Below are positions 2,968-32,000 of a stretch of 32,000 bases of DNA, piece after piece. The notes beneath the pieces were generated by a model. It was given only the letters and a program-made list of their open reading frames with translations. It was not told the origin of the DNA and did no database searches. The stretch comes from Puniceicoccales bacterium (lineage in GTDB: Bacteria > Verrucomicrobiota > Verrucomicrobiia > Opitutales > JAIRLG01), in NCBI GenBank assembly GCA_031288595.1, contig JAITRB010000007.1, positions 30,001-62,000 of the forward strand, written 5' to 3'. A program made the position numbers and the translations under genes. Numbering within the stretch: the first letter of the stretch is position 1; the number at the start of each line of letters is the position of its first letter.

Positions 2968-3068
2968 GGCTGCCGCCTTTGGTGCGGAGGGACGAGGCGG
3001 AAGCGCCTCGCCTCTCCGCACGGCCCGCGGAGCGGGCTGGAAGCCGAAGGCTTCCAAAGGCGGCGGCC
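2968..3068 (-). repeat. cloverleaf-type intergenic palindromic element, copy C (subfamily C/D)
   Basis: Closing stem 2968-2982 / 3054-3068 (14-15 bp, one G-U). It encloses a 17-bp hairpin (2983-3020, one mismatch and one G-U), an 8-bp hairpin cggcccgc-gga-gcgggctg (3021-3039) and the 6-bp/3-nt-loop hairpin gaagcc-gaa-ggcttc (3040-3054). Read on the minus strand the order is short-medium-long, as in the other copies. It lies 40 nt downstream of the recJ stop. Confidence 0.8.
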
Positions 3069-11454: not shown

Positions 11455-11592
11455 GGAGAAAAAGGACCGAGGGTGTGTGGCTGTCTTTGGATTCCGGAGG
11501 AATCACCCACGGAGTGGGTATCCGCCAGGCTGCAGCCTGGCGGCAAAGACAGCCACAGATAGCCGGTACGAGGCCTGGGTTCTGAAACGGTA

Positions 11593-13717: not shown

Positions 13718-13813
13718 CTGCCGGCTTTCGATTCCCAAGGAATCTCGCCCGCTTCGCGGGCTCCCCTGAGGGCCCAGGACGTCGTCCTGGGCCCTCAGGG
13801 GGAAAGCCGGCAG
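13718..13813 (+). repeat. cloverleaf-type intergenic palindromic element, copy E (subfamily E/F)
   Basis: Perfect 12-bp closing stem ctgccggctttc / gaaagccggcag (13718-13729 / 13802-13813). It encloses gattcc-caa-ggaatc (13730-13744), gcccgc-ttc-gcgggc (13747-13761) and a perfect 18-bp hairpin (13763-13801). Confidence 0.8.
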
Positions 13814-15059: not shown

Positions 15060-15074
15060 TGATGCCCGTTAAAG

Positions 15075-15326: not shown

Positions 15327-15378
15327 ACTTTTAGGAGATCTAAAGTGTCTCCTAAATATACCATCCATATCCCATCCA

Positions 15379-15411
15379 GCCCCTGGTACTCCGTACTGGG
15401 GGCATTTTTTT
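15379..15411 (+). terminator. intrinsic terminator downstream of rpsT
   Basis: 11-bp stem gcccctggtac-tcc-gtactgggggc (two G-U pairs) followed by a-ttttttt. A weaker 8-bp hairpin (15331-15355, ttaggaga...tctcctaa) lies just after the stop codon. Confidence 0.7.
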
Positions 15412-15776
15412 ATGATTTATTCGGGGGACTTCTACGAGGGATTTTTTTCTGGACTCCTGCTCCAGCATCCAGCCCTGGCCGCGCGTCCCAGGGGGGCGAT
15501 GGCTTTTCAGCCTAGACCGCTCCTGAAGCACCCCGACCCGTATCGAGCTGAGCCTTCGGTGGCCATGCCGGCTGTCTGGTCGTCTCTTTCGGTCCGGGAA
15601 GAGGGAGAACTTGCCTATTCGTCTCCAGGAATATCCGGAGCCAGCTCGTGGAGAGTTTGAGAAGAAATGGGGAATAGAGGCAAAGGCCAATATCCTGAAG
15701 ACCGATACGGTAGACAGCGCAGAGCACTTTCTCCAAGAAAACCTGTTGGCTTGGTGCTAGCCCTCTTCGGTTTTTC

Positions 15777-15861
15777 TGGTGCTCAGGAGGGGATTTGAAC
15801 CCCTACACCTTGCGGCATACGCCCCTCAAGCGTACGTGTCTACCGATTCCACCACCTGAGC
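15777..15861 (-). tRNA. tRNA-Leu (anticodon GAG), CCA encoded
   Basis: The reverse complement folds as a class II tRNA. It has a 7-bp acceptor stem (GCTCAGG/CCTGAGC) and a 3-bp D stem. The anticodon stem TACGC/GCGTA carries the loop TT-GAG-GG. There is a 13-nt variable arm, a T arm AGGGG-TTCAAAT-CCCCT, discriminator A and a terminal CCA. Confidence 0.9.
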
Positions 15862-15989
15862 CACGCTTCCTCCGCCGAAGGAAGAAGGTGCCAGCTATTG
15901 ACGGGGATTGACATTTGTTCGCAACAAAAAAGGTTGTGTGGAGAACGATTTTCCGGATGTTTCCAGACAGTCCATCGGGAAGGTGTGTT

Positions 15990-17630
15990 ATGGGAGATAT
16001 TACGAACGGCCAAGCGGGCGAGGAAGAGGAGGCGAAGGAAGCGCTGTCGGACTTTCAGAAGAGCCTCGAGGCGATTCAGTTCGCTCCCGAGTGGACACAG
16101 CGGCCGGAACGCCGAGCATATCGTGCCTCCGAGCCCACCGGCGACCCTCGGAGCCATCGGCCAAAAAGTTCTTTCTCTTCACCAAAGGACCGACGTCCCC
16201 ACTTCGAACGGCACAGTGGGAGCGAGAGGACGCGTCCTCCTTACGACCGGAGGGAGAGGAATCCGGGCTACCGCGGAGAATTCAGAAGCACTGAGACAAA
16301 GCCCCGAGAGCTCTTTGAGCCCATCATCGATGCGGCCTTTTATCCGGAGGACAAGGCAGTGGAATTACTCGTCTCGACGCTTCGCAGTTCGGGCAAGACC
16401 TATGAATTATTTCATCTCACCCAGCTGATCCTGGAAAAGCCGGAGCGCTTCGTCGTGGTCATACGGCGCCGACCGGAGAGCCATGGGGAGATCCTGCCGC
16501 TCTACCTCTCGCTCCTCGATAACCTCCCCTTCGAGAGCGAGAGGGAAACGCTGAACTATATCCTACAGCAGCATCTGGACGAGTTCTTCTCCATCGAAGA
16601 GCTGGATATCGAGCCGCCGAAAGGAAAATTCTCCTGTGTGCACCGCTGCGGACTCACGAAGAAACTGCTCGCAGCGCCCAATGACCACCGCTACAAGGAG
16701 ATTCTCCGCGAGCATTTTCAGAACGAGATCCGTGACCTGAGCTACGAAAATTTCTGCTCCCGCATCGAGACAACGCAGGAGAAGGCCGACATTCAAGCCT
16801 GGATCGAACAGATGTCGCACCGCAAGGTCTATATACCGAGGGAATTGCCCGAGGGGGTAGTGGAGCCCGTGCGACTGGAGTCTCTGAACGACGTCCGGCA
16901 GTACTGTCTGGACCACTTTCGCGAGCGCCTGATCCGCTCCTCCTCCAGTTTGCGGATTTCGGGATCGGCCCTGGCGCACCTTCCCCTGCGGCGGATTCGG
17001 CGTTCCATCGAGCTCCTCTGGCAACAGCAGCGGCGCTTCCCTTGGGAAACCGCCCATAACCTGTGGGGATGCTTGCGTCGGGCGCATTGCTGGCTCTACC
17101 GAAAAAAGGTCGGCGATAAGCTCATCACGTTCGCCTGCGCCGTGAAGCGCAAGATTCGGACCGGTAAGGAGGTATTCGAGCCGGAAATCCGATCGGTGCT
17201 CACCTGGCTCGAGGCCCATCCTATGTCCACGCGTCAGGAATTGGCGGCGGAAGGGATGCCTCAGGCGGTTCAGGAGCTCACCTGGTTGATCCAGGCCGGT
17301 TTCGTGACGGAGTTCGAGGATGGCCGGCTATTCCTGCCGAAGGTCATGGCCGAGCCTGTCCGGAAGGCGGCTTCGGAGGAGAACAGCGGGATCTCTAGCC
17401 CTCAGGAAAGCGAACTGGGGGAAATTTTGGACGAGGGCCTATCGGCGGAGGGAGACGAGAGCATTGCGGCCCCTGAGCCTGTATCGCCTGAGCCAACTCA
17501 GGGGATCTCGCTTGAGCCAACGGCCCTTGCGGAGCTGCCACCGAAGGAACTCAGCGTGCCGGAGGAGCTCCCGACAGCGCTCGCCCTGCCCATGGAATCC
17601 ATCGAGTCGGAGGAAGAGAAGGGAAGCTGA
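15990..17630 (+). CDS. hypothetical protein with Arg/Pro-rich N-terminal region and acidic C-terminal tail
   Basis: Long ORF (the track starts at 15915). The ATG at 15990 is preceded by GGGAAGG. The N-terminal ~110 aa are low complexity (RPERRAYR...DRRERNPGYRGEFR). The central ~350 aa look globular. The C-terminal ~90 aa are acidic and Pro/Glu/Ser-rich. No family recognised. Confidence 0.75.
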   Translation: MGDITNGQAGEEEEAKEALSDFQKSLEAIQFAPEWTQRPERRAYRASEPTGDPRSHRPKSSFSSPKDRRPHFERHSGSERTRPPYDRRERNPGYRGEFRSTETKPRELFEPIIDAAFYPEDKAVELLVSTLRSSGKTYELFHLTQLILEKPERFVVVIRRRPESHGEILPLYLSLLDNLPFESERETLNYILQQHLDEFFSIEELDIEPPKGKFSCVHRCGLTKKLLAAPNDHRYKEILREHFQNEIRDLSYENFCSRIETTQEKADIQAWIEQMSHRKVYIPRELPEGVVEPVRLESLNDVRQYCLDHFRERLIRSSSSLRISGSALAHLPLRRIRRSIELLWQQQRRFPWETAHNLWGCLRRAHCWLYRKKVGDKLITFACAVKRKIRTGKEVFEPEIRSVLTWLEAHPMSTRQELAAEGMPQAVQELTWLIQAGFVTEFEDGRLFLPKVMAEPVRKAASEENSGISSPQESELGEILDEGLSAEGDESIAAPEPVSPEPTQGISLEPTALAELPPKELSVPEELPTALALPMESIESEEEKGS

Positions 17631-17648
17631 TTCCCTATCCTGTTTTCC

Positions 17649-18803
17649 ATGGAAGCGGGGATTCCCTATGATCGTCACCATCCCTTTGAAGCGACCCTGC
17701 TGTCCCGTCGTTCCCTCTGCCGCGGCGAAACGGAGCGGGAAGCCTATCACCTAGTTATCGATATCCGTAGGAGCCAGTGGCACTACAGCTGCGGCGATTC
17801 CTTGGCCATTTTGCCCCAAAATGATCCCAGGTGCGTGTCTGACCTCTTGCAAAGGCTCTGTCTGGAGCCATTGACCCTCATCACACTGCCGTCTTCCGGT
17901 GTTCCAAAGCCCCTGCGCTTGGTACTGGAGGAAGAGCTCTGCCTCAACCATCTCCCGAAGTCTTTCTGGGAATTTCTGCGCCGGAGGGTGGCAAAGGATG
18001 GCGAGCTTTACCGGAAAATCCCTGTTGGCGAGAGCGAGGGATGGGAGAATTTTCTCAAGAATCACACGTTGGCGAAGGCGCTGGAACTGTTTCCCGATTT
18101 TCGCTGCACGGCCCAGGAGCTAGTCGAGCATCTGCGCCCCATGCTCCCACGCCTCTACTCCATCGCCTCCGCACCGACCCTCTTCCCCGAAGAGGTTCAT
18201 CTGGCCATCGTGATGGTGAAGTACGAGGACATTTACGGAGAAAAGCGCCACGGCGTCGCCACTCGCTACCTCTCACCGGAAGGGATACCGGTCGGCGGGC
18301 GCTGCCGCTGCTTTCTCGTGCGTTCCCATTTCCGCCTTCCGGAGGACATTCGGCGTGACATGATCCTGGTCGGCCCGGGCACCGGCGTCGCACCTTTTCG
18401 CGGTTTCATCTGGGAATACGCCGCCCAGCGGGAAGCTGGGAAGGAAACAGGCCGGACCTGGCTCTTCTTTGGCAGCCTCCGAAGGCATTCCCATTTCTAT
18501 TACCAGGAAGAATGGGAGGAGCTGATGGCCCGAGGGGTTCTCACCCATTTGGACTGCGCCTTTTCCCGCGACCAGGCAGAGAAAATCTATGTCCAACATC
18601 GGCTGCTGGAGCACGGGCCGGAACTGGCCCGATGGATTTTGGGAGGAGCTCATTTCTACATCTGTGGCGACGCAAGTCACATGGCCAAGGATGTCGAGGC
18701 TGCCCTGCTCCAAATCCTGTCGGTCCATGCTCATCTGTCGGATCCCGGAGATTATTTGCGGACGATGCGCCGCGAGAAGCGTTACCAGAAGGACGTCTAT
18801 TGA
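17649..18803 (+). CDS. CysJ/CPR-type FAD- and NADPH-binding reductase (FNR-like module only, no flavodoxin domain)
   Basis: 384 aa with the FAD-binding motif RLYSIASAP, the NADPH-binding motif LVGPGTGVAPFRGF, YICGDASHMAKDVEAAL, and the family-typical C-terminus RYQKDVY. Confidence 0.85.
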   Translation: MEAGIPYDRHHPFEATLLSRRSLCRGETEREAYHLVIDIRRSQWHYSCGDSLAILPQNDPRCVSDLLQRLCLEPLTLITLPSSGVPKPLRLVLEEELCLNHLPKSFWEFLRRRVAKDGELYRKIPVGESEGWENFLKNHTLAKALELFPDFRCTAQELVEHLRPMLPRLYSIASAPTLFPEEVHLAIVMVKYEDIYGEKRHGVATRYLSPEGIPVGGRCRCFLVRSHFRLPEDIRRDMILVGPGTGVAPFRGFIWEYAAQREAGKETGRTWLFFGSLRRHSHFYYQEEWEELMARGVLTHLDCAFSRDQAEKIYVQHRLLEHGPELARWILGGAHFYICGDASHMAKDVEAALLQILSVHAHLSDPGDYLRTMRREKRYQKDVY

Positions 18804-18870
18804 GCAGCCCAGGGAAGTCCTTGTTTCCCGAGTGATGGGGCGAGGGGAACTGCGGGAGAAAGGGTGTGTG

Positions 18871-18984
18871 CCTGGCTTTGCCGCCTTGGTGACGGAGAGG
18901 GAGAGGAAAGCTTGCCTCTCCCTCTCCGTCGCGGCCCGCGGAGCGGGCCGTGGGCCCTGCGGGCCCCCAAGGCGGCAAAGCAGG
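18871..18984 (-). repeat. cloverleaf-type intergenic palindromic element, copy D (subfamily C/D)
   Basis: Closing stem 18871-18889 / 18967-18984 (18 bp with one bulged G). It encloses a perfect 16-bp hairpin (18891-18930), a perfect 8-bp hairpin cggcccgc-gga-gcgggccg (18932-18950) and gggccc-tgc-gggccc (18952-18966). It shares a 17-nt identical hairpin core with copy C. It lies 36 nt downstream of the thyX stop on the minus strand. Confidence 0.8.
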
Positions 18985-19020
18985 GACTGATCTGGGAGCT
19001 TTTAAGCCCCTGGGGCGTGC

Positions 19021-19782
19021 TTATTCGCCGTCGGGCTTTTCGGTTTTGGGAGGCTGGAACGGCGGCTTTCGGCCGCAGCTGAAGGCGGGGGATTCGAAGC
19101 AAACTCCCCATTGTTCGCAGGAGGGGCCGGCGTGGCTGAAAAGAGTAGGAGAGATATTTTGGACCCATTGCCCCATGCGCCGGGCCAGGGCACGGATTTC
19201 CCACTGGGCACGGCTACAGCAGCGGAGCTGAAGAAAGTGGAGCAGCGAGCGCGCATTGAAGGTGGCGACCAGCTTCGTCTCGGCGGCGTTGGGCAGGACA
19301 AAACGGGCATCCTCGTTTGCCGATTCCCTTTTGCATCCGCTTTTCTGCATCCGCTCGCGCAGGCGTGCATAGGTCTCGCCGGCTTGGCGCATGAAGGCCT
19401 CATAGAGCCTTTTGGCCTCTTCATCTCGGGCGATGGAGGGGGGGAGGATGTAGTCCAATTCCTCCCCTTCGGCGCAATAGCGCTGGCTCTGCTGAGAATA
19501 GGAGGCTATCCGGTGGCGGATGAGTTGGTGCGAACAGGCCCGGGAGATCCCCTCGATGGCGAAGGTGAAACTGACATGTTCCAGCGGCGAGGCATGCCCC
19601 ATCATCAGGACGTTCTGCAAAAAATGCTCCCGCTCTTCGGCGGAGATCTTTCCGGCTCTCCGCGGCTGCACGACTGTGTCCATCACGAAGCCGGAGCTGT
19701 AGCACTGCCGAAAAGCGGCGAAGACGATGTCCTCGGCGTCAGGGGTATGGGCCAGCAATTCCACGTGCAGGATTTTCCGCAT
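19021..19782 (-). CDS. thyX: FAD-dependent thymidylate synthase ThyX
   Basis: 253 aa with the ThyX signature RHRIASYSQQSQRY and the conserved N-terminal and C-terminal blocks. Confidence 0.95.
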   Translation of the reverse strand: MRKILHVELLAHTPDAEDIVFAAFRQCYSSGFVMDTVVQPRRAGKISAEEREHFLQNVLMMGHASPLEHVSFTFAIEGISRACSHQLIRHRIASYSQQSQRYCAEGEELDYILPPSIARDEEAKRLYEAFMRQAGETYARLRERMQKSGCKRESANEDARFVLPNAAETKLVATFNARSLLHFLQLRCCSRAQWEIRALARRMGQWVQNISPTLFSHAGPSCEQWGVCFESPAFSCGRKPPFQPPKTEKPDGE

Positions 19783-19878
19783 GGGCAGGTCATCTTTAGG
19801 TTCCGCTGCTCCTTGGCAAGCAGGGCTTCTTCTCTGATCCCAGAAAGGCGAAAGGAGTTTTGATTTTCGGAATTCCCC

Positions 19879-20781
19879 TCAGCGCGTCGCTTGCTGATCT
19901 TCCTTCGCCTCTTTGCCTTTTTCCCCCTTGTCCCCTCGTCCTCTTTTAGGACTCAGGCTTTGGCCGATGCTGAAGACACGCGCGGTCTCGATGCCATCCG
20001 CCTCCACGCGTCGCAGCGTGACCCGGGACTCCGGGAGATCGATGTCCGAGAGGATGTAGAGTACATTGTTGATGCTGACCGAGTCCCCGACGTTCTTGAG
20101 CACATGCGTATCGCCGGATTTCAGGGAACGGAAGACAATGGTGTGGACATTGTCGTAGAACTTCCGCTCCCGCCCCAGATCGATGTACTGTTCGGTCTCC
20201 AAATCGTAGATGGTCACGACGGGCTCCTGGAGCTTGACCCCTTCTTCCGTCTCGATGGCGATGAGCTTGAAATCCGAAACCGATATTTTGGAACTGGGAA
20301 TGGCGTGTCCCAGGGTGCAGCGAAAGGTATGCTTCTGCTGCAGATCGTTCAGCATGATGATGTAGTCCTTGTAGGAGGCCTTGGCCTTCGGCCGCTCCAG
20401 CACATAGCCCTCGAACTGGATACGGTAGGGCGTTCTCTGGAAGGAAATCAGCTCCAGCTCGAACTCCAGCGGATCGGAGACATATTCCGGAAGTTCGGCC
20501 GACAGGGTCTTGCCGATAGAGGTGATCTGCGGTGGGGTGAAGAGGTCGAAGAGCCAGGTGGGGCCTAGGGGAAGGGCCTCTGGATTCCTCCATTTCAGAT
20601 AAGGCGGCAAACGGTAGTTTAGGATCTCTTCCTTCGGCGCGGGATATTGGTGGTAATCCCCCCCTTCCAGCGAGGGGAGAACAGGTTTCGTGTCCTGGTA
20701 ATTCAGGAGAAGGTAGGCCTTGATACCTCCCAGAGTTCCCAGAGCGAGGAGTACCCACATCAGCTGTTTCCGAAACGTCAT
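19879..20781 (-). CDS. membrane-anchored hypothetical protein (PilP-position member of pilus-like cluster)
   Basis: 300 aa with a single N-terminal TM helix (LMWVLLALGTLGGIKAYLLL), a beta-rich-looking body and a Lys/Gly/Glu-rich tail. It starts 13 nt after the upstream gene of the same cluster. Confidence 0.7.
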   Translation of the reverse strand: MTFRKQLMWVLLALGTLGGIKAYLLLNYQDTKPVLPSLEGGDYHQYPAPKEEILNYRLPPYLKWRNPEALPLGPTWLFDLFTPPQITSIGKTLSAELPEYVSDPLEFELELISFQRTPYRIQFEGYVLERPKAKASYKDYIIMLNDLQQKHTFRCTLGHAIPSSKISVSDFKLIAIETEEGVKLQEPVVTIYDLETEQYIDLGRERKFYDNVHTIVFRSLKSGDTHVLKNVGDSVSINNVLYILSDIDLPESRVTLRRVEADGIETARVFSIGQSLSPKRGRGDKGEKGKEAKEDQQATR

Positions 20782-20794
20782 GATCGATCCGAAA

Positions 20795-21670
20795 TTACAT
20801 GAGTATATTTCCGGCCTGTTCGTTGAAGCCGAGCCACTCCAGGGTTAAAGTGATCCGCGAATAGCCCGAGGCCACCACGATCTTGGCGTTGTCCTTCGGG
20901 GCCAGCCGTTCCGCCGGTTTGATGGATAAGCCGCGCAGCACGAAGGGCAGCTGTTCCTTCCGCATATGGTTGATGAAGTTGCGCAGCGTCTTGCTGTAGT
21001 CCTCGAAGACGATCTGCACGCACACCGAACTCACCTTCCCCTTTGAGGAGGACAGCCGGTGGAAGCTGCTCATTGGGAAAGTATCTCCCTCGCCCTTGTT
21101 CTTGCTGTCGGAAGACAGGGCCTCGCGTTTGACCGAGATCAGGTTCATGCCGCCATCTTGGGAGGAGAAGAGCAGGCCTAATACTTTCTCCATCACGAAG
21201 GTCTGCTCCCAGAGGTCTTTCAGCGCTGTTTTGGGAGGGCTGGTATTTTTTTTGACGAAGCTCGAAAAACCGAAACTGATCTCCGTGGGATAGCGTACCC
21301 CCAGGAGGCCGGCCTGTTCTCGCATGCGCTGCTCGAAGGCCGCGACGGCGAAGAAGAAGTCGACGGTGTTTTTGGGAATCTGCTGCTCGGAGCCCAGCGT
21401 CGAGTGATCGTAATAATCCTCTAGCAGTCCATAGACCAGGAGCGCGTAGGCGTTGGCATCGCTCCGCGCCTGCATCAATGTGCGGCGACTGATGGGGGGA
21501 TCCTGCGCGAGCAACTGGGACTTAAACTGCTGCAGCTCCGCTATGAGCCCTTGCAGGGTCACTTTCAGGGATTGTTCCGCGGTGATCTGTTGCCAGAGAG
21601 AGACGACGGCTGACGCGAAGAGGAGCGTGGCTCCTAGAAAGAAACCGTGCCGTCGGAAGAATTTCATCAC
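20795..21670 (-). CDS. membrane-anchored pilus-associated protein, Amuc_1100-like / PilO-position
   Basis: 291 aa with an N-terminal TM helix, a coiled-coil-like segment and a C-terminal alpha/beta region. Its start overlaps the PilM/N-like gene's stop by 4 nt (ATGA). Position and architecture resemble the Amuc_1100 family of Verrucomicrobia; this is from my recollection, not an alignment. Confidence 0.65.
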   Translation of the reverse strand: MMKFFRRHGFFLGATLLFASAVVSLWQQITAEQSLKVTLQGLIAELQQFKSQLLAQDPPISRRTLMQARSDANAYALLVYGLLEDYYDHSTLGSEQQIPKNTVDFFFAVAAFEQRMREQAGLLGVRYPTEISFGFSSFVKKNTSPPKTALKDLWEQTFVMEKVLGLLFSSQDGGMNLISVKREALSSDSKNKGEGDTFPMSSFHRLSSSKGKVSSVCVQIVFEDYSKTLRNFINHMRKEQLPFVLRGLSIKPAERLAPKDNAKIVVASGYSRITLTLEWLGFNEQAGNILM

Positions 21671-23286
21671 AGGGCAAGAGGGGTTTCTTTGCGGAGCAGA
21701 AGGTCAAAACTGAAGGCGACGGTGTGCTCGTCCTTCACGAAGAGTTGGATATTCTGTAGCTCTTTCACGAAGGGAACTTGCTGCATGTTCTGCAGAAACT
21801 GAGCCATCTGTCGCTCAGTATGCGCTTGTCCCAGTGCTTCGGTCGTCAGCATACTTCCCCTCATCGTTATCTGGGGCGATGCGGCCTCCAGCTTCCAGTC
21901 CCATTCATCGAACCACAGGGTCTGGGCCTTAGCCGTCTGCTCCTGAAGGCTGTTGAAGAATTTCAACCAGGCATCCTGGTGGTCCACCAGCGAGCGAATG
22001 CGGTCGGCATCCTTCCGCCTCGTCGTGATCTGTTCCTTGGCGGCGGCTATCCCTTTTTCGATCTGCACGGCTTCCCGTTGAAAGGCTTTCAGTATGACGA
22101 TCTCGTGCCTGGCCGATTTGTTTTCTGTCTGCAGCAGGGACATCTCTCCGAAGAGAAGGATCGAGGCGATGAGTACAGAGGCCAGAATCCACGCTTTGCA
22201 GCGCGTGAAGTAGTAGTCCGCCTTCCAGGATGCAGGGATCATGTCCATGAAAAACGCAGAGCCCTTGCGGCGATTCCTGGTGCTGGTCATGCCGTAGGCC
22301 GCGATCAAAGAGGGCTCGAGAACGGCTTTCATTTCCTTCGGGCCCCGTCTTTCGTAGCTGAACCTAAAGTGCTCGGATGCGGGGATGACGCTCTTGCCTG
22401 CATCCGCCAATACCTTTCCCACGAAGGCGTAGGCCGACGAGTGATAGGCCCCGAGAACGGCCTGGTGATACTCCTTCCCGGACGCTTCTCGATACAGGGC
22501 GAGTTCGGCCTGTTTGAACTTTGCATGCAACTGCTGCCGCGCCTGGGCGCCACAGGCACCGGCGGCGGTGGTCGGATCGGCAGCCAGTATCTCCTGCACG
22601 ACCCGCGTATCGTCCGATATTCCCTCCCCAAGGGCAGGGATGATTTCCCTAAAACTCTTCAATAGACCCAGATGCTCGTGGGGAATGGTGCTCATCCTCG
22701 TCTTTTTTCCCTCCTGGAAGCAGAGAGTGATGACATGCGCTCCGACGTAGACGAAAAGCGTCGGGTCTTTGCAGCTCGCCTGCTCGAAGCGCAGCAGGGC
22801 CAGGAGACTATCGACAAAGACGTGCCGGACGGAGACATAGCGCTTGGCCAAGATTTCCAGCCATTTCTCCAGAAAATCCCGCTTGAGGGCGAAGCAGGGG
22901 AGGTCCTTTTCCTTGCCGAAAGCGCTGATGAAGCCCGTGATCCATTTCTCGCTTGCACCTTCGGCCTCGCGCATCGACCGCTGGAACTCGAAGTCGATGG
23001 CCTGTCGGTAATGTGGCTTTGAGATGGCGGGTATATCCAGCTGCCTGAAGGCCACAGCTTCGCTGGGCACGATGACGGAATGGATCTTCTGTCGCACGTG
23101 AAGGGGGAGTTTTTTGATCCAAGCGTCAAAGGCCCTGAGCCACTCCTCTTCGCCGTGAGTCCTGAGCTCTTGACCCCAAATGCGCGCTATGCGCCATGTG
23201 CCCAGTCTCTTTATCCAGCGCACGATGGCGAAGCACGACGCATTCCCCAGTAGGATAAACTTCTCCCTGCTCAACCCAAACCCCAT
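21667..23286 (-). CDS. fused PilM-like (actin-fold) / PilN-like protein (GspL-like architecture)
   Basis: 539 aa. A ~360-aa cytoplasmic region is followed by one TM helix (AWILASVLIASILLFG), a coiled coil and a small C-terminal domain. This is the layout of PilM plus PilN or of GspL. The nucleotide-binding motifs look degenerate. Confidence 0.65.
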   Translation of the reverse strand: MGFGLSREKFILLGNASCFAIVRWIKRLGTWRIARIWGQELRTHGEEEWLRAFDAWIKKLPLHVRQKIHSVIVPSEAVAFRQLDIPAISKPHYRQAIDFEFQRSMREAEGASEKWITGFISAFGKEKDLPCFALKRDFLEKWLEILAKRYVSVRHVFVDSLLALLRFEQASCKDPTLFVYVGAHVITLCFQEGKKTRMSTIPHEHLGLLKSFREIIPALGEGISDDTRVVQEILAADPTTAAGACGAQARQQLHAKFKQAELALYREASGKEYHQAVLGAYHSSAYAFVGKVLADAGKSVIPASEHFRFSYERRGPKEMKAVLEPSLIAAYGMTSTRNRRKGSAFFMDMIPASWKADYYFTRCKAWILASVLIASILLFGEMSLLQTENKSARHEIVILKAFQREAVQIEKGIAAAKEQITTRRKDADRIRSLVDHQDAWLKFFNSLQEQTAKAQTLWFDEWDWKLEAASPQITMRGSMLTTEALGQAHTERQMAQFLQNMQQVPFVKELQNIQLFVKDEHTVAFSFDLLLRKETPLAL

Positions 23287-23542
23287 CTCTGGAACGAGCG
23301 TATGCGTTTTCTCTGCGGCGTCAATCGTTCCTCTTTTCGTCCCTGCTTTTTTCTCAAGCCCCAGGCTCCATGATCGGCGCTCCTCTCCGGATTTTCGTTC
23401 GGGGAAAAATGCTTTATTGGAAAAAACTCCTCGGCGAAGGAGGGCTGCCCCGTCGATCTGCTCGGCGATTCCGATTCAGTGCCCCCAGTATTTTCCCTTT
23501 GTGTAGGGAGGAATTTTTCTCCATCTAGGGAGGGTGCAAGGG

Positions 23543-24769
23543 ATGGAAGAGCCTATCGTCATCACCGGAGTCGGTCTCACGGCGCCCAACGGCAATACTC
23601 TGGAAGAGTTTCGGCGCAATTTACTGGCGGGATTCAGTCGGATACAGTGGCTGGAGGTGCGCCATATGGGTCGGGTGCCGGCCGGAGTCTGCGACTTCGA
23701 TGTCTTGCGCTACCAGGGCCAAAAGGAGATCAAGAACGGTACCCGTGCGGGCAGCATCGCTCTCTACTGTGCCCATGAGGCTCTGCAGGATGCCGGCATC
23801 CTGCTTTCGGAGCGTGATCTCTCCCGAATCGGGATCTACATCGGCATCACGGAGCATGGGACGGTCGAGACGGAGAATGAGATCCATGCGCTATCGCTCT
23901 TCCACTACGACGTCCGCTACTGGTCGCACCACCACAACCCACGGACGATCGCCAACAATCCGGCCGGAGAGGTCAGCATCCAGCTCGGCATCACGGGGCC
24001 GCACTATACCCTGGGGGCCGCCTGTGCGGCCGGCAACATCGGGATCATCCAGGCGGTACAGATGCTGCGCCTCGGGGAGGTCGACCTCGCCCTGGCCGGT
24101 GGGGTCAGCGAGAGCATCCGCTCCTTCGGCATCTTCGCGGGCTTTAGGAGCCAGGGGGCGCTCGGCCATGGAGAGGATCCCAATACTGTCAGCAGGCCCT
24201 TCGACCTTGGGCGAAATGGGATCGTCATCAGCGAAGGGGGATGCCTCTACACGCTGGAGCGGCTCTCCGATGCCCGGAAGCGGAGGGCGAAGATCTATGG
24301 GGAAATTGCCGGCTACGCCATCAATTCCGATGCCGCCCATGCGGTGCTGCCCAATCCCCAGCGCCAGGCGGAGTGCGTGCGTCTGGCTCTGCGGCGAGCC
24401 CGACTGAACCCCCAGGACATCGATATCCTCAACACCCATGCGACCTCCACCATCCAGGGAGATCGGCAGGAGTGCCTCGCCGTGCGGGAAGTCTTCAGCT
24501 CCTGTCCGAAGACCTTTATCAACAACACTAAGAGCTTCATCGGCCATGCGATGGGGGCCGCCGGTGCGCTCGAGTTGGCCGGCAATCTACCGGCTTTTGA
24601 GGACCGTCAGGTCCATGCGACGATCCACATCGAGCACCTGGATCCCCAGTGCGAGTTGCCGAATCTCGTCTGCAACGAAGTGCGTTCTGTCCCCGAAGTC
24701 CGCACCATCCTTAACACCTCCTTCGGCATGCTGGGGATCAATTCCGTCGTGATCGTCCGGAAGCTCTGA
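23543..24769 (+). CDS. fabF: beta-ketoacyl-ACP synthase II family protein
   Basis: The Cys-His-His catalytic triad contexts are present: GPHYTLGAACAAG, NTHATST and GHAMGAAG. The ATG at 23543 lies 8 nt after GGGAGGG (the track ORF starts at GTG 23534). Confidence 0.9.
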   Translation: MEEPIVITGVGLTAPNGNTLEEFRRNLLAGFSRIQWLEVRHMGRVPAGVCDFDVLRYQGQKEIKNGTRAGSIALYCAHEALQDAGILLSERDLSRIGIYIGITEHGTVETENEIHALSLFHYDVRYWSHHHNPRTIANNPAGEVSIQLGITGPHYTLGAACAAGNIGIIQAVQMLRLGEVDLALAGGVSESIRSFGIFAGFRSQGALGHGEDPNTVSRPFDLGRNGIVISEGGCLYTLERLSDARKRRAKIYGEIAGYAINSDAAHAVLPNPQRQAECVRLALRRARLNPQDIDILNTHATSTIQGDRQECLAVREVFSSCPKTFINNTKSFIGHAMGAAGALELAGNLPAFEDRQVHATIHIEHLDPQCELPNLVCNEVRSVPEVRTILNTSFGMLGINSVVIVRKL

Positions 24770-24796
24770 GGGGAGAAAGGCTTGGGATCTTTAGGA

Positions 24797-24906
24797 GGAG
24801 CAATGGCCGCTTTCGGAGAAAGCTCGGCGCTTCGGCCCGAAGGGCCGGAGCGCCGTGTCTTGACTGGGCCGGCTCCGCCGGCCCAGTCAAGACAGGCCAT
24901 TGCGCC
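24797..24906 (+). repeat. cloverleaf-type intergenic palindromic element, copy A (subfamily A/B)
   Basis: Closing stem 24797-24808 / 24895-24906 (12 bp, one mismatch). It encloses gctttc-gga-gaaagc (24809-24823), a 14-bp hairpin with one G-U (24825-24855) and a perfect 18-bp hairpin (24856-24894). It starts 27 nt after the fabF-like stop. Confidence 0.85.
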
Positions 24907-24995
24907 TTACCCATTGCACCCTAGCAGGGCCTATGCTCTCTCTCCGCCATCTTTGGCCTTGCCTCCCCGAGAACTCTCCCGTAAATAAGGAAAAC

Positions 24996-25448
24996 ATGCT
25001 TGCGGACATCGAGAAGATCCGGCAACTGGCGGCGGTGATGGCGGAGGTCGGCCTTACGGAGATCGAGGTGGAGGGAGAGGGAGGCCGAATCCGCCTATCC
25101 AAACAGGCGGCTTTGACCTCAGTGGCGACCTGGCCGCCGACAGAGCTGGAATCGACGCCCTTGCCCAAGCCTTCGACGGCTTCTGGAACATCGAGTCCCT
25201 ATGGGGATTGCCGGACGATCGAATCGCCTCTGGTGGGGACTTTCTACCGCGCAGCTACGCCTGATGGGGAGGCGCTGGTCGCGCTGGGAGATCGGGTGGC
25301 AATCGGCACACCCGTCTGCATCCTAGAGGCCATGAAGGTCATGAACGAGATCCTCTCGGACGTGGAGGGGACGGTGGTCGAGATCCCCGTCCAGAATGCT
25401 GAGCCTGTGGAGTTCGGCCAGGTGCTCTTTTACATCCGGCCCGCCTGA
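24996..25448 (+). CDS. accB: acetyl-CoA carboxylase biotin carboxyl carrier protein
   Basis: The biotinylation motif EAMKVMNEI is present, with a Pro/Ala/Ser-rich linker before the lipoyl-like domain. The ATG at 24996 avoids overlap with the repeat element (the track ORF starts at 24900). Confidence 0.9.
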   Translation: MLADIEKIRQLAAVMAEVGLTEIEVEGEGGRIRLSKQAALTSVATWPPTELESTPLPKPSTASGTSSPYGDCRTIESPLVGTFYRAATPDGEALVALGDRVAIGTPVCILEAMKVMNEILSDVEGTVVEIPVQNAEPVEFGQVLFYIRPA

Positions 25449-25458
25449 GCCGCTCGCC

Positions 25459-26814
25459 ATGATCCGAAAGCTGCTCATCGCCAACCGCGGGGAAATCGCC
25501 GTCCGCATCCTGCGGGCTTGCCGGGAGATGGGCATCGAAACTCTGGCAGTCTACTCCCAAGCTGATCGCTCTTCCCTGCATGTCCAGCTGGCCGACGAAG
25601 CCATCTGCATCGGGCCAGCCGCGGCGTCTGAGAGTTACCTCCGCCTGGACCGCATCCTCAGCGCCGCTGAATTGGCCAATGCCGATGCCATCCATCCGGG
25701 CTATGGTTTTCTCTCGGAAAATCCGAACTTCGCCCAGCTCTGCGAGGACTGCCGCATTCGCTTCGTGGGGCCGAGTGCAGAGACGATTCGGCAGATGGGG
25801 GACAAGGCACGGGCCAAGGAGGTGGCCAGACGTGCCGGTGTGCCGACGGTTCCGGGTAGCGAGGGCGTCTTGGCCGATGAGGGGGAGGCCCTGGCCCTGG
25901 CGGAAAAAATAGGCTGGCCGGTTCTGCTCAAGGCGGTGGCCGGCGGCGGTGGCCGGGGCATGCGCCTTGTGTCGCGGCCGCAGGATTTGTCTCAGGACTT
26001 CCTGCTCGCCTGCCACGAAGCTGAAAGGAATTTCGGCCGTGGGGAGCTCTATCTGGAGAAGTACATCGAGGCACCGCGGCACATCGAGCTTCAAATCCTG
26101 GCCGATGCCCAGGGACACTGCGTCCACCTCGGCGAGCGCGACTGCTCCGTCCAGCGCCGCTACCAAAAGCTGATGGAAGAAGCTCCCTCTCCTTTTCTCG
26201 ATGAGCCGCTGCGCCGGCGGATGGGGGAGGCGGCCATACGCATCGCCCAGAATGCCCACTATGAGGGGGTTGGTACCGTCGAGTTCCTCGTCGATGGGCG
26301 GAAGAACTTCTACTTCATGGAGATGAATACCCGTCTCCAGGTGGAGCACGGGGTCACGGAGGAGGCGACGGGCATCGACCTCGTCCAGCAGCAGCTGCGG
26401 GTGGCGATGGGGGAGCCGCTATCCCTGCGTCAGGAGGACATTCATTTCATAGGCCATGCGCTGGAGTGCCGGATCAATGCCGAGGATCCGGAGAGGAATT
26501 TCGCACCCAGCCCGGGAAGGATTTCCCTCTACCATGCCCCGGGAGGTCCTGGCATTCGGATGGACTCATCGGTCTACGGCGGCTACGAGATCCCAACGCA
26601 CTACGACAGCCTGGTCGGCAAGCTCATAGCCACCGGAGCGACGCGGCCGGAGGCGATCCAACGCCTGGAAGGCGCGCTGGCCGAGCTGCGCCTCGAGGGC
26701 ATCGCGACGACGGCTCCTCTGGTCAGAGAGATCCTGCGAGACGAGGATTTCCGCGAGGGCCGTGTGACGACCCATTTTCTCCAAAACTTTCTCGGGCGCA
26801 GCCGCAGCGCCTGA
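25459..26814 (+). CDS. accC: acetyl-CoA carboxylase biotin carboxylase subunit
   Basis: The N-terminus MIRKLLIANRGEIAVRILRACREMGI, the ATP-grasp motif GGGGRGMRLV and EMNTRLQVEH are present. The ATG at 25459 lies 10 nt after the accB stop. Confidence 0.95.
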   Translation: MIRKLLIANRGEIAVRILRACREMGIETLAVYSQADRSSLHVQLADEAICIGPAAASESYLRLDRILSAAELANADAIHPGYGFLSENPNFAQLCEDCRIRFVGPSAETIRQMGDKARAKEVARRAGVPTVPGSEGVLADEGEALALAEKIGWPVLLKAVAGGGGRGMRLVSRPQDLSQDFLLACHEAERNFGRGELYLEKYIEAPRHIELQILADAQGHCVHLGERDCSVQRRYQKLMEEAPSPFLDEPLRRRMGEAAIRIAQNAHYEGVGTVEFLVDGRKNFYFMEMNTRLQVEHGVTEEATGIDLVQQQLRVAMGEPLSLRQEDIHFIGHALECRINAEDPERNFAPSPGRISLYHAPGGPGIRMDSSVYGGYEIPTHYDSLVGKLIATGATRPEAIQRLEGALAELRLEGIATTAPLVREILRDEDFREGRVTTHFLQNFLGRSRSA

Positions 26815-26823
26815 TGGCTCACC

Positions 26824-28239
26824 GTGGACTCTGCGAGCGCATTTAAAAAGGATTCCCTGCAGCTCGTCCTCGTGGGACGGCCCAACGTCGGCAAGAGCCG
26901 CCTGTTCAACCGCCTCTGTGGCCGACGCATCGCCATCGTCCACGACCAGGCCGGTGTGACGCGGGATGTCCTCGCCGAGGAAATTTCCCCGGGAATCGTC
27001 CTCCTCGATAGTGGGGGCATCGGCCTGGTCTCCGACGAAAAAGCGGTACTGCTTCGGGCAGTGGAGGAACAGGTCGACTTCGCCATCGCGGCGGCCGACC
27101 GGATTCTCCTCGTCGTCGATGCCTCCGTCGGCTGCCTGCCAGTGGATTTCGAAATCGCCCAGGAGCTCCGCCATTCCGGCAAACCGATTCTCCTCCTGGC
27201 CAACAAGGCCGATGTCGGGGAGCAGCGCCTCCAGCTCGACAGCTTCTACGCATTGGGCCTGGGACCACCTCTAGCCATCTCCGCTGAGAACGGCCAGGGC
27301 GAGGAGACCTTGCGGCGGGAGATCGAGACGTGGGCCCAGAAGCACCTTCGGCCGCGGCCCAAGACAGACGAAGGGATAAAGCCCATTACCCTTTGCTTCG
27401 CCGGTCGGCCGAACAGGGGCAAGTCATCGCTCATCAATGCCCTACTGCGGGAGAAAAGAGCGGTGGTCTCGCCCGTTCCGGGAACGACGCGGGATGCGAC
27501 GGCCTATCATCTGGATTTTTCGAGCACCGGTGGCGAGAGCTTCCGCTTCCGCCTTCTGGACACGGCCGGCGTTCAGGCGAAGAAAAAGCTCGCTTCACCG
27601 GTGGATTATTTTTCGCAAGTCCGAACGGGAAAGGCCATCGCCGAAGCCGACATCGTCTTCCTGGTCGTCGATGCGCTCAGCGGTCTGACCCGCTCAGACC
27701 AGCTGCTCGCCATGCGGGTGCTCGAAGCGGGCCGAGGCCTGCTCCTCGTCGTCCATAAGTGGGACTTGGCCGAGACGGCCTTTCGAGAGGGGAAGCTGGA
27801 AAATTACAGGACACCGGAGGATTTTCAAAAGGATTTTCTCGGAGCCGTTCGGCGGGAACTCCCCTCGCTCCCAGGACTGCCCGTCCTCTTTACATCTATC
27901 CATGCGGCCGATGGAGCTAAGATCCTTTTAGAGGAGGCCCAGGGCCTCTACGCTCGCCTGGCTCAGGCTCTCCCTACGGGGCTGCTCAATCGAACGCTGC
28001 AGAGGCTGATGGAGGCCCATCCGCCGGCCCTCGCCGTCGGTCGACGGTTCAAGATCTACTACGCGACCCAGACGGGAAACTTTCCCTTCCGCCTCAAAAT
28101 TTTTTGCAATCGCCGAGAGCGCCTGGCGGATTCCTATCAGCGCTATCTGGAAAATGGTCTGCGGAAACAGTTCCATCTGGAAGCCTGTCCGCTCCGCTTC
28201 GAATGGGTGGAAAAGGAAGGTCGCCCATCGTGCCTCTGA
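26824..28239 (+). CDS. der: ribosome biogenesis GTPase Der (EngA)
   Basis: Two tandem GTPase domains carry P-loops GRPNVGKS and GRPNRGKS, plus NKAD and HKWD G4 motifs and a KH-like C-terminal domain. The start is GTG. Confidence 0.95.
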   Translation: MDSASAFKKDSLQLVLVGRPNVGKSRLFNRLCGRRIAIVHDQAGVTRDVLAEEISPGIVLLDSGGIGLVSDEKAVLLRAVEEQVDFAIAAADRILLVVDASVGCLPVDFEIAQELRHSGKPILLLANKADVGEQRLQLDSFYALGLGPPLAISAENGQGEETLRREIETWAQKHLRPRPKTDEGIKPITLCFAGRPNRGKSSLINALLREKRAVVSPVPGTTRDATAYHLDFSSTGGESFRFRLLDTAGVQAKKKLASPVDYFSQVRTGKAIAEADIVFLVVDALSGLTRSDQLLAMRVLEAGRGLLLVVHKWDLAETAFREGKLENYRTPEDFQKDFLGAVRRELPSLPGLPVLFTSIHAADGAKILLEEAQGLYARLAQALPTGLLNRTLQRLMEAHPPALAVGRRFKIYYATQTGNFPFRLKIFCNRRERLADSYQRYLENGLRKQFHLEACPLRFEWVEKEGRPSCL

Positions 28240-28270
28240 GAACAGCATTCCTCAGGGATGGTATTTTGGG

Positions 28271-28372
28271 GGCGCAATGGCCGCTTTCGGAGAAAGCCCT
28301 CCCCGGGCGCGGCCGCGCCCGGAGGTTCGTCCTAGTGCCGGCAAAGCCGGCGCCAGGACGGGCCATTGCGCC
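28271..28372 (+). repeat. cloverleaf-type intergenic palindromic element, copy B (subfamily A/B)
   Basis: Perfect 12-bp closing stem ggcgcaatggcc / ggccattgcgcc. The first hairpin is identical to copy A (28283-28297). The second hairpin spans 28298-28325 (5+6 bp with a 2-nt bulge). The third spans 28328-28360 (15 bp, one mismatch and one G-U). It starts 31 nt after the der stop. Confidence 0.85.
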
Positions 28373-28505
28373 TTGCGATGAGAAACAGACCATGCATTTT
28401 CGCTTTTGCCTCGGACATGAAAATGAGTATTTTCTCCTATTGACAGTGCGGGCGAGGTTATAAGTTCGCGCATCCTTCGAATAGCCGCATTCCATCTATG
28501 AGCTA

Positions 28506-30065
28506 ATGGCCAGACAGATTCTTTTCTTCTCCGTGACTGTACTACTGGGAGGGAGTCCGCTGATGGCGGCGGGAATATCGAGTCCGAGGGTGCTGCGCTG
28601 GGCAGCAAATCCGGAAAGCGGACCACCTTATGCGTTTTTTTCCTGGAAGCAATCCTCGAAGCGAGTCAACGGGATGGATGCCGATGTGATTCGGGAAGTG
28701 GCCAAACGCCTGGGCTGCGAGGAGCGCTTCTACATCAATGACTGGGACAACCTGATCCCAGGCCTGCGCCGTGGGCTCTACGACGTCGTGATCAATGGTA
28801 TTGTCGCGCCGGAACGGCCGATGCCCGGGGTGATCTTTACCCGGCCCTATTTTCGCGGAACGCGCCAGCTGGTCATCCGGCGGGATGAGGAAAAAATCGT
28901 CAACCTGGCAACGGCCCAGGGCTATCGGGTGGGCCTCATTCCGGACGCATGTACGCATGAGCTATTGGAGGCCTATCCCGGGATCAAGCTGCTGTACTAC
29001 ACCGACGAGTACGAGGTGTTCTTCGACCTCAAGCGCGGGCAGATCGACGCCATCCTGATGGATAGCCCTGGTGTGCTCTACCACAGCTCGATCCAAGCAG
29101 ATACGCGGGTGCTCGAGGAAGCGGTGGTGGAGCTGGAGTACGTCATGGCGCTGCGGGCCGAGGATGGCGAGTGGCTGGAGAGGATCAATCGAGCGTTGGA
29201 GGAGATGAAGGCCGACGGCAGCCTCTTGGCCATCATGCGCTACTGGGGACTCTGCCAAAAACCCTTCTGCCAGATGCTGGGTATACCGGAAGAACCGCTT
29301 CCGGAATTGGCATCTGTCCCGGGCTACAGGCAATTTCTGGAAAACGTTCAGTCGCCCACATCCTGGCAGGAGTTCACCGAGCGTTACCGGAAGATTTTGC
29401 CCCTGCTGGGCCAGGCGGCGCTGATCACCCTGGAGCTCTCCATCGTGTCGATGGGTATTGCGGTGCTGCTGGGCCTCCTGCTGGCCCTGCTGCGGCTCTA
29501 CGCACCACTTGCCATCCGATGGCTGGCCATTCTGTGGATCGAATTCCTGCGTGGCACACCGCTGCTGATCCAACTCTTCTTCATCTTCTACGGCCTGCCC
29601 TTCATAGGCATTTCCCTGCCGCCCTTTTGGGCAGCGGTTCTGGCCCTGGGACTGAACTACTCCGCCTTCGAAGCGGAGAACTATCGGGCGGGCCTGTCCT
29701 CGGTCCCCCGGGCCCAGATGGAGGCCGCCAGGGCCCTGGGCATGACCCAGTTCCAGGCTCTGCGCCACGTAATTGTCCCCCAGGCCTTTTCCTTCGTCCT
29801 GCCGCCCATGACCAATGATTTCATAGCCCTTTTGAAGGATTCCTCTCTGGCCTCGCTGGTCACGATGGTCGAGCTGACCAAGACCTATGCCCTCCTGGCC
29901 AATTCCTATTTCGATTTCTTCGGTACCGGTCTGGTGGTGGCCCTGGTCTACCTCCTCATCGGTCTGCCCTTTTCCTATCTCGCCCATTTGGCGGAGCGCT
30001 ACATGTCCCTGGAAAAACAGGCCTATCGAGGAGTATATGCGCGGCGGAGGAGGAATCGGGGCTAG
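28506..30065 (+). CDS. amino-acid ABC transporter, fused periplasmic substrate-binding protein and permease
   Basis: 519 aa with a signal peptide and a family-3 solute-binding domain (~250 aa). This is followed by a HisM/GlnP-type permease (FLRGTPLLIQLFFIFYGLP; EAA loop ARALGMTQFQALRHVIVPQA). Confidence 0.9.
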   Translation: MARQILFFSVTVLLGGSPLMAAGISSPRVLRWAANPESGPPYAFFSWKQSSKRVNGMDADVIREVAKRLGCEERFYINDWDNLIPGLRRGLYDVVINGIVAPERPMPGVIFTRPYFRGTRQLVIRRDEEKIVNLATAQGYRVGLIPDACTHELLEAYPGIKLLYYTDEYEVFFDLKRGQIDAILMDSPGVLYHSSIQADTRVLEEAVVELEYVMALRAEDGEWLERINRALEEMKADGSLLAIMRYWGLCQKPFCQMLGIPEEPLPELASVPGYRQFLENVQSPTSWQEFTERYRKILPLLGQAALITLELSIVSMGIAVLLGLLLALLRLYAPLAIRWLAILWIEFLRGTPLLIQLFFIFYGLPFIGISLPPFWAAVLALGLNYSAFEAENYRAGLSSVPRAQMEAARALGMTQFQALRHVIVPQAFSFVLPPMTNDFIALLKDSSLASLVTMVELTKTYALLANSYFDFFGTGLVVALVYLLIGLPFSYLAHLAERYMSLEKQAYRGVYARRRRNRG

Positions 30066-30075
30066 GGATCCACTG

Positions 30076-30179
30076 GGGCCGGCTTTCGATGCCGGAGGCA
30101 TCGCTGCCCCCCGCGGCTTGCGCCGCGGGGGGCGGCCAAGAGGGAAAGCCAGGGAGCTTTCCCCTTGGAAAGCCGGCCC
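30076..30179 (+). repeat. cloverleaf-type intergenic palindromic element, copy F (subfamily E/F)
   Basis: Perfect 12-bp closing stem gggccggctttc / gaaagccggccc. It encloses gatgcc-gga-ggcatc (30088-30102), a 15-bp hairpin with one G-U (30103-30136) and a 12-bp hairpin with one bulge (30137-30167). It starts 10 nt after the ABC transporter stop. Confidence 0.8.
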
Positions 30180-30404
30180 AGACCCCAGCTCTCTTCGCAG
30201 CCCAGACGCTTCGGGTTTTGGGGGCCCCGAGATACTGGTAGCGGAGCACTTGAGTATCCCTTCCGGAGAGACGCAAAATTTCTCTGAAGTGGCCTCGAGA
30301 CAAGACGGCGAAAAAGGATCCCTGAAAAGGGATCTGAGACAGCGCGGTGAAAAAACATTGCTATCCGGCCGGCGATCGATTACTCAGGGGAATCCTCGTC
30401 CGAC

Positions 30405-32000
<1,596 letters not shown>

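Follow-up and report, generated by a model that had tools for sequence, protein, structure and literature searches.

Intergenic palindromic repeats with a four-way-junction fold in a Puniceicoccales genome and its relatives

[quoted passage not shown] REP sequences are characterized by a conserved GTAG-like 5' tetranucleotide beside the hairpin. Other structures are recognized as folded single strands, namely the T-shaped terminal repeats of adeno-associated virus (AAV) and other parvoviruses, integron attC sites and the ends of IS200/IS605 insertion sequences (IS), and the AAV repeat has two inner arms that occur in two orders, flip and flop. Here, we describe a palindromic repeat composed of a closing stem and three hairpin arms, exemplified by the element at 24797-24906 of a 32,000-nt stretch (the window) from a metagenome-assembled genome (MAG) of an uncultured Puniceicoccales bacterium (Verrucomicrobiota), which is a verrucomicrobial genome of the termite-gut type. 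With about even confidence, we interpret it as a REP/MITE-like repeat that acts at the DNA level, is copied whole and is kept paired by template switching during replication. Among the closest described systems, REP, BIME and REPIN sequences are high-copy, GC-rich and intergenic, are often located just 3' of genes and are inherited vertically over long periods (PMC3333891; PMC8049555). Correia/NEMIS, ERIC, BOX and RUP elements measure about 100 nt, carry terminal inverted repeats, are dispersed in spacers and are predicted to form stable folds, BOX being modular (PMC10969869; PMC3049150). In mitochondria of yeast, Allomyces and sponges, GC clusters, double-hairpin elements and repetitive hairpin-forming elements are small GC-rich palindromic modules that spread in spacers, merge, shuffle and insert into one another, and that keep their hairpins while changes concentrate in the loops (PMC4478555; PMC2800124).

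The element at 24797-24906 is composed of GGAGCAATGGCC / GCTTTC-GGA-GAAAGC / T / CGGCGCTTCGGCCC-GAA-GGGCCGGAGCGCCG / TGTCTTGACTGGGCCGGC-TCC-GCCGGCCCAGTCAAGACA / GGCCATTGCGCC. An earlier reading of the letters alone (the sequence-only reading) had placed it between a fabF-like gene and accB, in agreement with the flanking genes for a beta-ketoacyl synthase (23534-24769) and a biotin-carboxyl-carrier protein, and had described a closing stem around three abutting hairpins of 6, 14 and 18 bp with nearly all nucleotides paired. Folding confirmed this architecture with one unpaired nucleotide at the junction, although the "12-bp" closing stem was slightly generous, its 12 positions comprising 11 pairs and one A/G mismatch. 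The minimum free energy (MFE) was -93.1 kcal/mol for RNA (z -13.2, with 0 of 200 shuffles as good) and -58.9 kcal/mol for DNA (z -14.1, equalled by no shuffle). The same fold was obtained on both strands for the five other copies that had been listed (z -6.7 to -11.2), the one said to start at 18871 properly spanning 18875-18981. Rather than the six copies claimed, the window holds seven: a structural scan for exact inverted 8-mers 40-150 nt apart, with at least three internal hairpins and more than 80% of bases paired, recovered those six and an additional one at 11476-11557 (Table 1). The scan gave no match in 20 dinucleotide shuffles of the window and one marginal match in 774 kb of unrelated metagenome contigs used as negative control. 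All seven copies are intergenic, and those at 2968 and 18875 belong to one family with the others, in opposite orientation. Within the window, the modules GCCCGC-NNN-GCGGGC and GCCGGC-N3-5-GCCGGC are confined to the elements; the hairpin modules never stand alone, and the whole element is an indivisible unit.

Exactly three arms were present in each of the 24 complete copies that were decomposed. The unit measures 79-113 nt (nested forms reach 274 nt), with a closing stem of 10-16 bp, 0-4 unpaired junction nucleotides (19 copies tabulated) and arms of 6-21 bp with 3-nt loops. Subtypes A to E are listed in Table 1; types B, C and E have in common a short arm, a medium arm GGCCCGC-NNN-GCGGGCC and a long arm that is often purine-rich with a tip resembling GAAAGC..GCTTTC. 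A covariance model trained on ten type-C copies only recovered untrained type B copies with 58-73 bits, the type E copy L137:5894-6006 with 44 bits, the nested copy of L135 with 35 bits, the window copy at 30076 with about 22 bits and two truncated copies at contig starts. Since type B is thereby recovered, the notion of types B and C as unrelated families was dropped and the two are regarded as one family. The designation of the element at 24797 as the type copy does not hold, as it belongs to the minor subtype A and scored 16.8 bits with the model of the main family, as compared to 22-110 bits for types B, C and E; type A as a whole gave only 16.8 and 11.1 bits. In about 165 kb from other relatives (L003-L013), the model found nothing at an E-value of 1 or below.

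In about 113 kb of sequence from relatives (contigs L002, L134-L140, L143 and L145, found via protein searches), around 30 copies were detected, corresponding to about one per 4 kb, all of them intergenic. The search for further copies, which had been set in advance as a test of the family, was thus positive in the window as well as in relatives. Extrapolation from this clade sequence would give hundreds of copies per genome. Relatives L003-L011 yielded no elements, a metagenome-wide scan with GGCTTTCGATNCCNNNGGNATC listed at least 120 loci, all of them chance matches devoid of a closing stem, and the type-A core had no match when scanned against viral contigs. Contig breaks or N-gaps lie inside elements at L002:1-60 and 5545-5638, L135:5423-5545, L137:3263-3306, L139:1728-1799 and L145:1-75, as would be expected of a repeat that is hard to assemble, and the repeats appear to fragment short-read assemblies of the clade. 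The Logan contig L001, which carries the atpG gene of the window, begins 37 nt past the copy at 30076. In L136, a type B copy (1926-2021) and an AT-richer type D copy (2047-2138), unrelated in sequence and 25 nt apart, form a tandem pair of four-way junctions. A different arrangement was seen after a fabF-like gene of a Puniceicoccales relative with a GC content of 0.40 (L005:11240-11675), where a unit of about 230 bp is tandemly duplicated; the unit strings together several perfect, GC-rich hairpins, lacks an enclosing stem (DNA fold z -10.7) and may represent a related or parallel hairpin-repeat system of the low-GC lineage.

The elements correspond to no described class that we could find, and the sequence-only reading had likewise been unable to name one. 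No Rfam family matched them: the sole match in the window at the gathering threshold was a tRNA at 15780-15861, and the best sub-threshold score on an element was 22 bits against a threshold of 52 bits. ARAGORN detected only a tRNA-Leu at 15777-15861, blastn against plasmid and phage collections gave no match to the elements, and in full-text literature searches no repeat of bacteria came up that was presented as a cloverleaf or four-way junction. Several candidate identities were rejected: an intrinsic terminator, since no T-tract follows the elements; a tRNA-like element, since ARAGORN and Rfam find only the tRNA-Leu and the arms here have 6-21 bp with 3-nt loops; known ribozymes and other Rfam families, for which there was no match at threshold; a retron non-coding RNA, which also has a closing stem and hairpins, since there is no reverse transcriptase gene and seven copies occur in 32 kb; and an assembly artefact, since orthologous sites are occupied in independent NCBI, JGI and Logan assemblies.

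The resemblance to REP, BIME and REPIN lies in the high copy number, the GC-rich sequence, the vertical inheritance over long periods, the strictly intergenic location, often 3' of genes, the occurrence in both orientations, the lack of target duplication and hairpins that probably act as single-stranded DNA. However, a REP sequence has a single imperfect hairpin (about 20-40 nt) and a BIME or REPIN has two, whereas the present unit consists of a closing stem with three different hairpins. Moreover, unlike REP, the elements have no GTAG-like tetranucleotide beside them and nest in each other's arms. With bacterial MITEs they share the size of 79-113 nt, terminal inverted repeats of 10-16 bp and the location in spacers. 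By contrast, MITEs of the Correia/ERIC type are one long imperfect hairpin, usually accompanied by target duplications and related IS, while the fold here is branched and near-perfect, duplication is absent and sequence-unrelated subtypes (type D, L136:2047-2138) share the topology. Because the single-hairpin unit, the tetranucleotide and the target duplication are all missing, the family is set outside both groups; the elements are a palindromic intergenic repeat of new make and belong to neither the REP nor the MITE family. The mitochondrial elements are organellar and have one or two hairpins with no enclosing stem, whereas the present family is bacterial and chromosomal and has a fixed four-way junction. 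A stem enclosing small palindromes is also found in AAV repeats, attC sites and IS200/IS605 ends, and two arm orders occur as in AAV, but those structures are parts of a larger replicon with Rep, integrase or transposase, while the present structure stands alone in spacers.

The pairing itself is informative with respect to the level at which the structure is maintained. Among 987 pairs in 20 complete copies, 17 were G-T pairs, 8 were A/C mismatch positions and 1 was another mismatch, so that about 98% were Watson-Crick and 1.7% G-T (G-U in RNA); 86.5% of the bases were paired and the fold energies of the two strands were nearly equal. As G-U pairs amount to 1.7% and A/C mismatches, which read as G-U on the opposite strand, to about half of that, it is on both strands and not on a transcribed one that pairing is preserved. 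The hairpin loops were mostly C-GGA-G (16 of 54), or else TCC, TTC, AAA or GAA, the majority being C-GGA-G, C-GAA-G or the complements of these. DNA minihairpins with a GNA triloop closed by C:G are known to be exceptionally stable (PMC3201870; PMC13037366). Covariation, which had been named beforehand as a test, was strong in two alignments. In alignment A1 (11 copies of types A, B and E), 93% of the cells were paired, both sides had changed in 11 of 24 pairs and the covariation score was 0.29, as compared to 0.12 after shuffling (0 of 500 as high) and 0.00-0.09 with partners slid. In alignment A3 (10 type C copies), both sides had changed in 21 of 38 pairs, with a score of 0.39 as compared to 0.18 after shuffling (0 of 500 as high) and 0.12-0.20 with partners slid.

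The elements persist at orthologous sites in lineages with 67-92% protein identity (clpX-surA, sulfite-reductase/thyX, ABC-transporter/atpG, fabF-accB and after der), with compensated substitutions and whole-pair indels separating their arms. Comparisons of orthologs and paralogs revealed how the arms change: 34 pairs had changed on both sides with pairing kept, 7 on one side and 6 otherwise, and 97 whole pairs were gained or lost. The copy at 18875 and its ortholog L143:3987-4090 have kept the scaffold, their lineages sharing 67% protein identity and having genome GC contents of 0.59 and 0.46; in the long arm, GGAGAGGGAGAGG has given way to AAGAGAAAAAAATG, and the partner strand has changed accordingly. 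Additionally, GGA and TCC loops alternate on arms that are otherwise identical. Template switching between the arms of inverted repeats homogenizes and expands arms and inverts spacers (PMC8604942; PMC8794818), and both the symmetric pair changes and the loop flips fit such switching during replication. Since template switching is also known to create and maintain hairpins (PMC8794818), the palindromes might be purely a mutational by-product that grew in place in GC-rich spacers, with no copying between loci, an explanation to which the symmetric changes, whole-pair gains and losses and inverted loops would equally conform. We consider it highly improbable: sequence is shared across genomes and across unrelated loci in the closing stems, short arms and medium arms, two copies in L145 are 95% identical and the arm count is constantly three. 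Judged from the sequence homology between loci, local origin appears largely refuted.

Evidence for copying and for mobility comes from the distribution of the elements. L145:2792-2899 and L145:9022-9129 are about 95% identical, mutually inverted and have unrelated flanks; two similar type B copies lie about 1 kb apart in L136, and both orientations occur. At the fabF-accB site, the ortholog L002:1417-1690 agrees with 24797-24906 in the closing stem, the first hairpin and the base of the medium arm (24825-24855), this arm having a longer tip, and bears at the tip of its long arm a complete inverted type B element with a closing stem that begins GCCGGCTTTC. Similarly, at L135:3795-3995 one type B element sits in the tip of the long arm of a second one. 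Next to the ABC-transporter gene, the window, L139 and L140 carry an element, whereas the spacers flanking this gene in L142 (74% identity) are unstructured on either side, and nothing in the window corresponds to the copies L002:3856 and L135:3795. The comparison with relatives that had been proposed for mobility was thus borne out for variation in presence and absence (L142, L002:3856, L135:3795) and not for target-site duplications, which are considered below. In L002:3680-3800, after accC, a truncated copy of the 5' end of der is followed by a second accC-end/der-start junction and then by a type B element, after which the next long open reading frame (ORF) starts only at 4075, while the gap between accC and der in the window is only 10 nt; this looks like a local duplication or rearrangement adjoining the element.

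The sequence-only reading had left three interpretations standing, i.e., a structured RNA module, a cruciform site in DNA or a small mobile element. Of these, the DNA-level and mobile ones are favored and a strand-specific RNA is disfavored, because pairs are about 98% Watson-Crick, both strands fold equally, orientation is mixed and one site lies between divergent starts, and because of nesting, variable presence and near-identical copies at unrelated loci. The non-coding unit of about 80-110 nt is a terminal inverted repeat enclosing three hairpin modules, either single strand of which folds into an almost gap-free four-way junction. We propose that multiplication would proceed by copy-and-paste without target duplication, with the folded single strand as the probable recognized form, by analogy with hairpin-dependent transposases of the IS200/IS605 type or those associated with REP. 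Transposition of the IS200/IS605 type is marked by a lack of target duplication, hairpins recognized in single-stranded DNA, a strand bias relative to replication and a TnpA gene; as to strand bias, the arm order on the G-rich strand was the same in five of the seven window copies, a sample too small to judge by, and no consistent polarity linked T-rich or A-rich flanks, the purine-loop strand and arm order. Intramolecular template switching at replication would keep the arms perfect, leaving homogenized arms, symmetric indels and inverted loops, and base-by-base selection would then not be needed for pairing. Copies may survive mainly just 3' of stop codons, where insertions would be harmless or, as very stable 3' structures, mildly useful.

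Several observations weigh against this interpretation as a DNA-level repeat copied whole. No target-site duplication was found flanking 17 copies, nor at the two L145 copies with about 95% identity, and no conserved flanking motif was found around the elements. Alignment of filled and empty sites between L140, L142 and the window met spacers that are too diverged beyond a block upstream of atpG, and neither a transposase nor another dedicated enzyme was seen among the genes of the window. Occupancy persists at 67-76% protein identity with the scaffold kept across GC contents from 0.46 to 0.59, a pattern that resembles purifying selection on a host function more closely than it does selfish DNA. 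Furthermore, a stop codon precedes six of the seven window copies by 11-72 nt, and with respect to the upstream gene one arm order prevails at around 10 of 13 independent sites, a weak excess; both would also fit a role as RNA.

According to such an RNA-based explanation, the elements would be a host-selected structured RNA at 3' ends or between cistrons, functioning in either orientation as exonuclease block, insulator, terminator or target of RNase III or another RNase, as has been demonstrated for certain REP and Correia elements. Apart from the location behind stop codons, it draws on the occupation of the same spacers across lineages, the strong covariation (21 of 38 pairs in A3 and 11 of 24 in A1 changed on both sides) and the marginal bias to the short-medium-long order in the sense direction. 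However, orientation relative to transcription is mixed, the copy at 11476, like its orthologs, runs antisense to the genes beside it and the copy at 13718 lies between divergent gene starts, upstream of a predicted clpX promoter. G-U pairs at only 1.7%, with A/C mismatches about half as common, also count against it, as does the absence of an element in L142 at a site occupied in relatives, and the GNA triloops are a signature of DNA stability that is not typical of RNA. No T-run follows any of the seven copies in their flanks on either strand, and in a terminator scan of 13000-32000, with five copies in range, none was called terminator-like, while ordinary hairpins with a T-run are present elsewhere in the window. 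Taken together, we hold this explanation to be possible but doubtful. Small terminator-like hairpins followed by a T-run were detected by a simple scan at 28246-28260 and 13688-13705, immediately before the elements 28271 and 13718; the candidate at 28246-28260 is therefore separate from, and adjacent to, the four-way-junction element at the 3' end of der.

Persistence may alternatively reflect structural sites in the DNA of the host, where a cruciform or a fold on the lagging-strand template, resembling a Holliday junction, would be bound by a junction- or hairpin-specific protein or absorb supercoils between transcription units, modelled on the binding of gyrase, IHF and Pol I proposed for BIMEs. 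The equal folding of both strands with 0-4 unpaired nucleotides at the junction and the constant number of three arms, suggestive of recognition by shape rather than by sequence, would be in line with this. So would the conserved positions between transcription units, including convergent and divergent spacers. Nevertheless, we judge such sites improbable, given that no candidate binding protein was found, that presence differs between relatives, that nesting and near-identical dispersed copies are unexpected of fixed architectural sites and that extrusion of four arms from duplex DNA would be energetically demanding.

A bolder version of mobility, which we regard as unlikely, would be a so far undescribed kind of mobile DNA defined by its structure, in which the folded strand, a perfect Holliday-junction-like form, would be recognized by its shape via a putative junction-specific enzyme of this Puniceicoccales clade and would land in the long-arm tips of resident copies. 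Recognition by shape and not by sequence would account for sequence-unrelated subtypes that are all three-armed, and preferential landing in the long-arm tip of a resident copy for the self-similar nested copies.

Table 1. Elements of the window, parts of the element at 24797-24906, subtypes, and relatives carrying copies.
Feature	Coordinates	Strand	Details
Whole element, subtype A	24797..24906	+	short-medium-long arm order on + strand; between ketoacyl synthase and accB
Closing stem, 5' arm GGAGCAATGGCC	24797..24808	+	pairs with 24895-24906 at 11 of 12 positions, one A/G mismatch
Short arm (hairpin 1) GCTTTC-GGA-GAAAGC, 6 bp, C-GGA-G triloop	24809..24823	+	identical in 28283-28297 and L002
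Medium arm (hairpin 2), 14 bp including one G-T pair, GAA loop	24825..24855	+	from the fold
Long arm (hairpin 3), perfect 18 bp, TCC loop, tip GCCGGC-TCC-GCCGGC	24856..24894	+	from the fold
Closing stem, 3' arm GGCCATTGCGCC	24895..24906	+	from the fold
Subtype A copy	28271..28372	+	32 nt past der stop codon; closing stem and short arm as in 24797, other arms differ; partial ortholog L002:5545-5638, cut by contig end
Subtype B copy, closing stem GGGCCGGCTTTC, short arm GATGCC-GGA-GGCATC	30076..30179	+	11 nt past ABC-transporter stop codon; ortholog at end of L139; covariance model 21.8 bits
Subtype B copy	13718..13813	+	between divergent starts of ClpX-like gene and rpoZ; covariance model 66 bits; near-identical relatives L136:1926-2021 and L136:3025-3128
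Subtype E copy, closing stem TGTGGCTGTCTTTG, short arm GATTCC-GGA-GGAATC	11476..11557	+	between ClpX-like and SurA-like genes, both on - strand; orthologs L137:5894-6006, L138:1397-1475, L143:11664-11742
Subtype C copy, closing stem GCCGCCTTGG	18875..18981	-	convergent spacer, sulfite-reductase-like gene / thyX; short-medium-long order reads on - strand; covariance model 92 bits; orthologs L134:1434-1540, L143:3987-4090
Subtype C copy	2968..3068	-	41 nt past recJ stop codon (recJ on - strand); covariance model 72.8 bits
Subtype A			closing stem GCGCAATGGCC; short arm GCTTTC..GAAAGC
Subtype B			closing stem GCCGGCTTTC; short arm GATNCC..GGNATC
Subtype C			closing stem GCCGCCTT(T)GG
Subtype D			closing stem GCTCCGGCGATCC; AT-richer arms
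Subtype E			closing stem GGCTGTCTTTG
Relative L002			92% protein identity to window; GC 0.65; several copies, one nested; contig start and end both within copies
Relative L139			91% protein identity; GC 0.63; one copy, cut by contig end
Relative L134			85% protein identity; GC 0.63; one copy
Relative L136			81% protein identity; GC 0.62; three copies
Relative L138			79% protein identity; GC 0.48; one copy
Relative L143			77% protein identity; GC 0.46; two copies
Relative L140			76% protein identity; GC 0.47; three copies
Relative L145			74% protein identity; GC 0.48; two copies and one cut by contig start
Relative L135			72% protein identity; GC 0.64; one doubly nested copy; probable further copy at N-gap
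Relative L137			70% protein identity; GC 0.63; two copies and one with N-gap

Some further features of the window were noted. Immediately upstream of the atpG start codon, a stretch of about 55 nt (30349-30404; GAAAAAACATTGCTATCCGG..GATCGATTACTCA..) has been conserved in L140 and L142, outside of which the spacer is unalignable; this stretch has no Rfam match at the gathering threshold and might serve the atp genes as promoter or 5'-leader element. The ClpX-like AAA ATPase encoded on the - strand at 11593-13539 has 648 aa, as compared to 623-649 aa in the closest high-GC relatives and about 530-550 aa in most Puniceicoccales homologs, a difference that points to about 100 additional aa at the N-terminus or to a start codon assigned too early. 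Four ORFs (8024-9454, 15915-17630, 19879-20781 and 20795-21670; 291-571 aa) gave no Pfam match; genes comparable in length occupy syntenic positions in L138 (415 aa) and in L135 and L143 (613 aa and 555 aa).

Small palindromic repeats are among the least understood components of bacterial genomes, and the present family adds a new, branched shape to them. By breaking short-read assemblies of the clade, the elements may contribute to the fragmentation of its MAGs. The family also offers a natural test of how long stems may be kept perfect by template switching during replication, with no need for selection to act on every base pair. Moreover, the topology has remained invariant while the arm sequences turned over completely and the GC content of the genomes shifted widely, which points to recognition of DNA (or RNA) shape. 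Following up this apparent constraint on shape could reveal a junction-specific enzyme, or a manner of punctuating transcription units, that is new.

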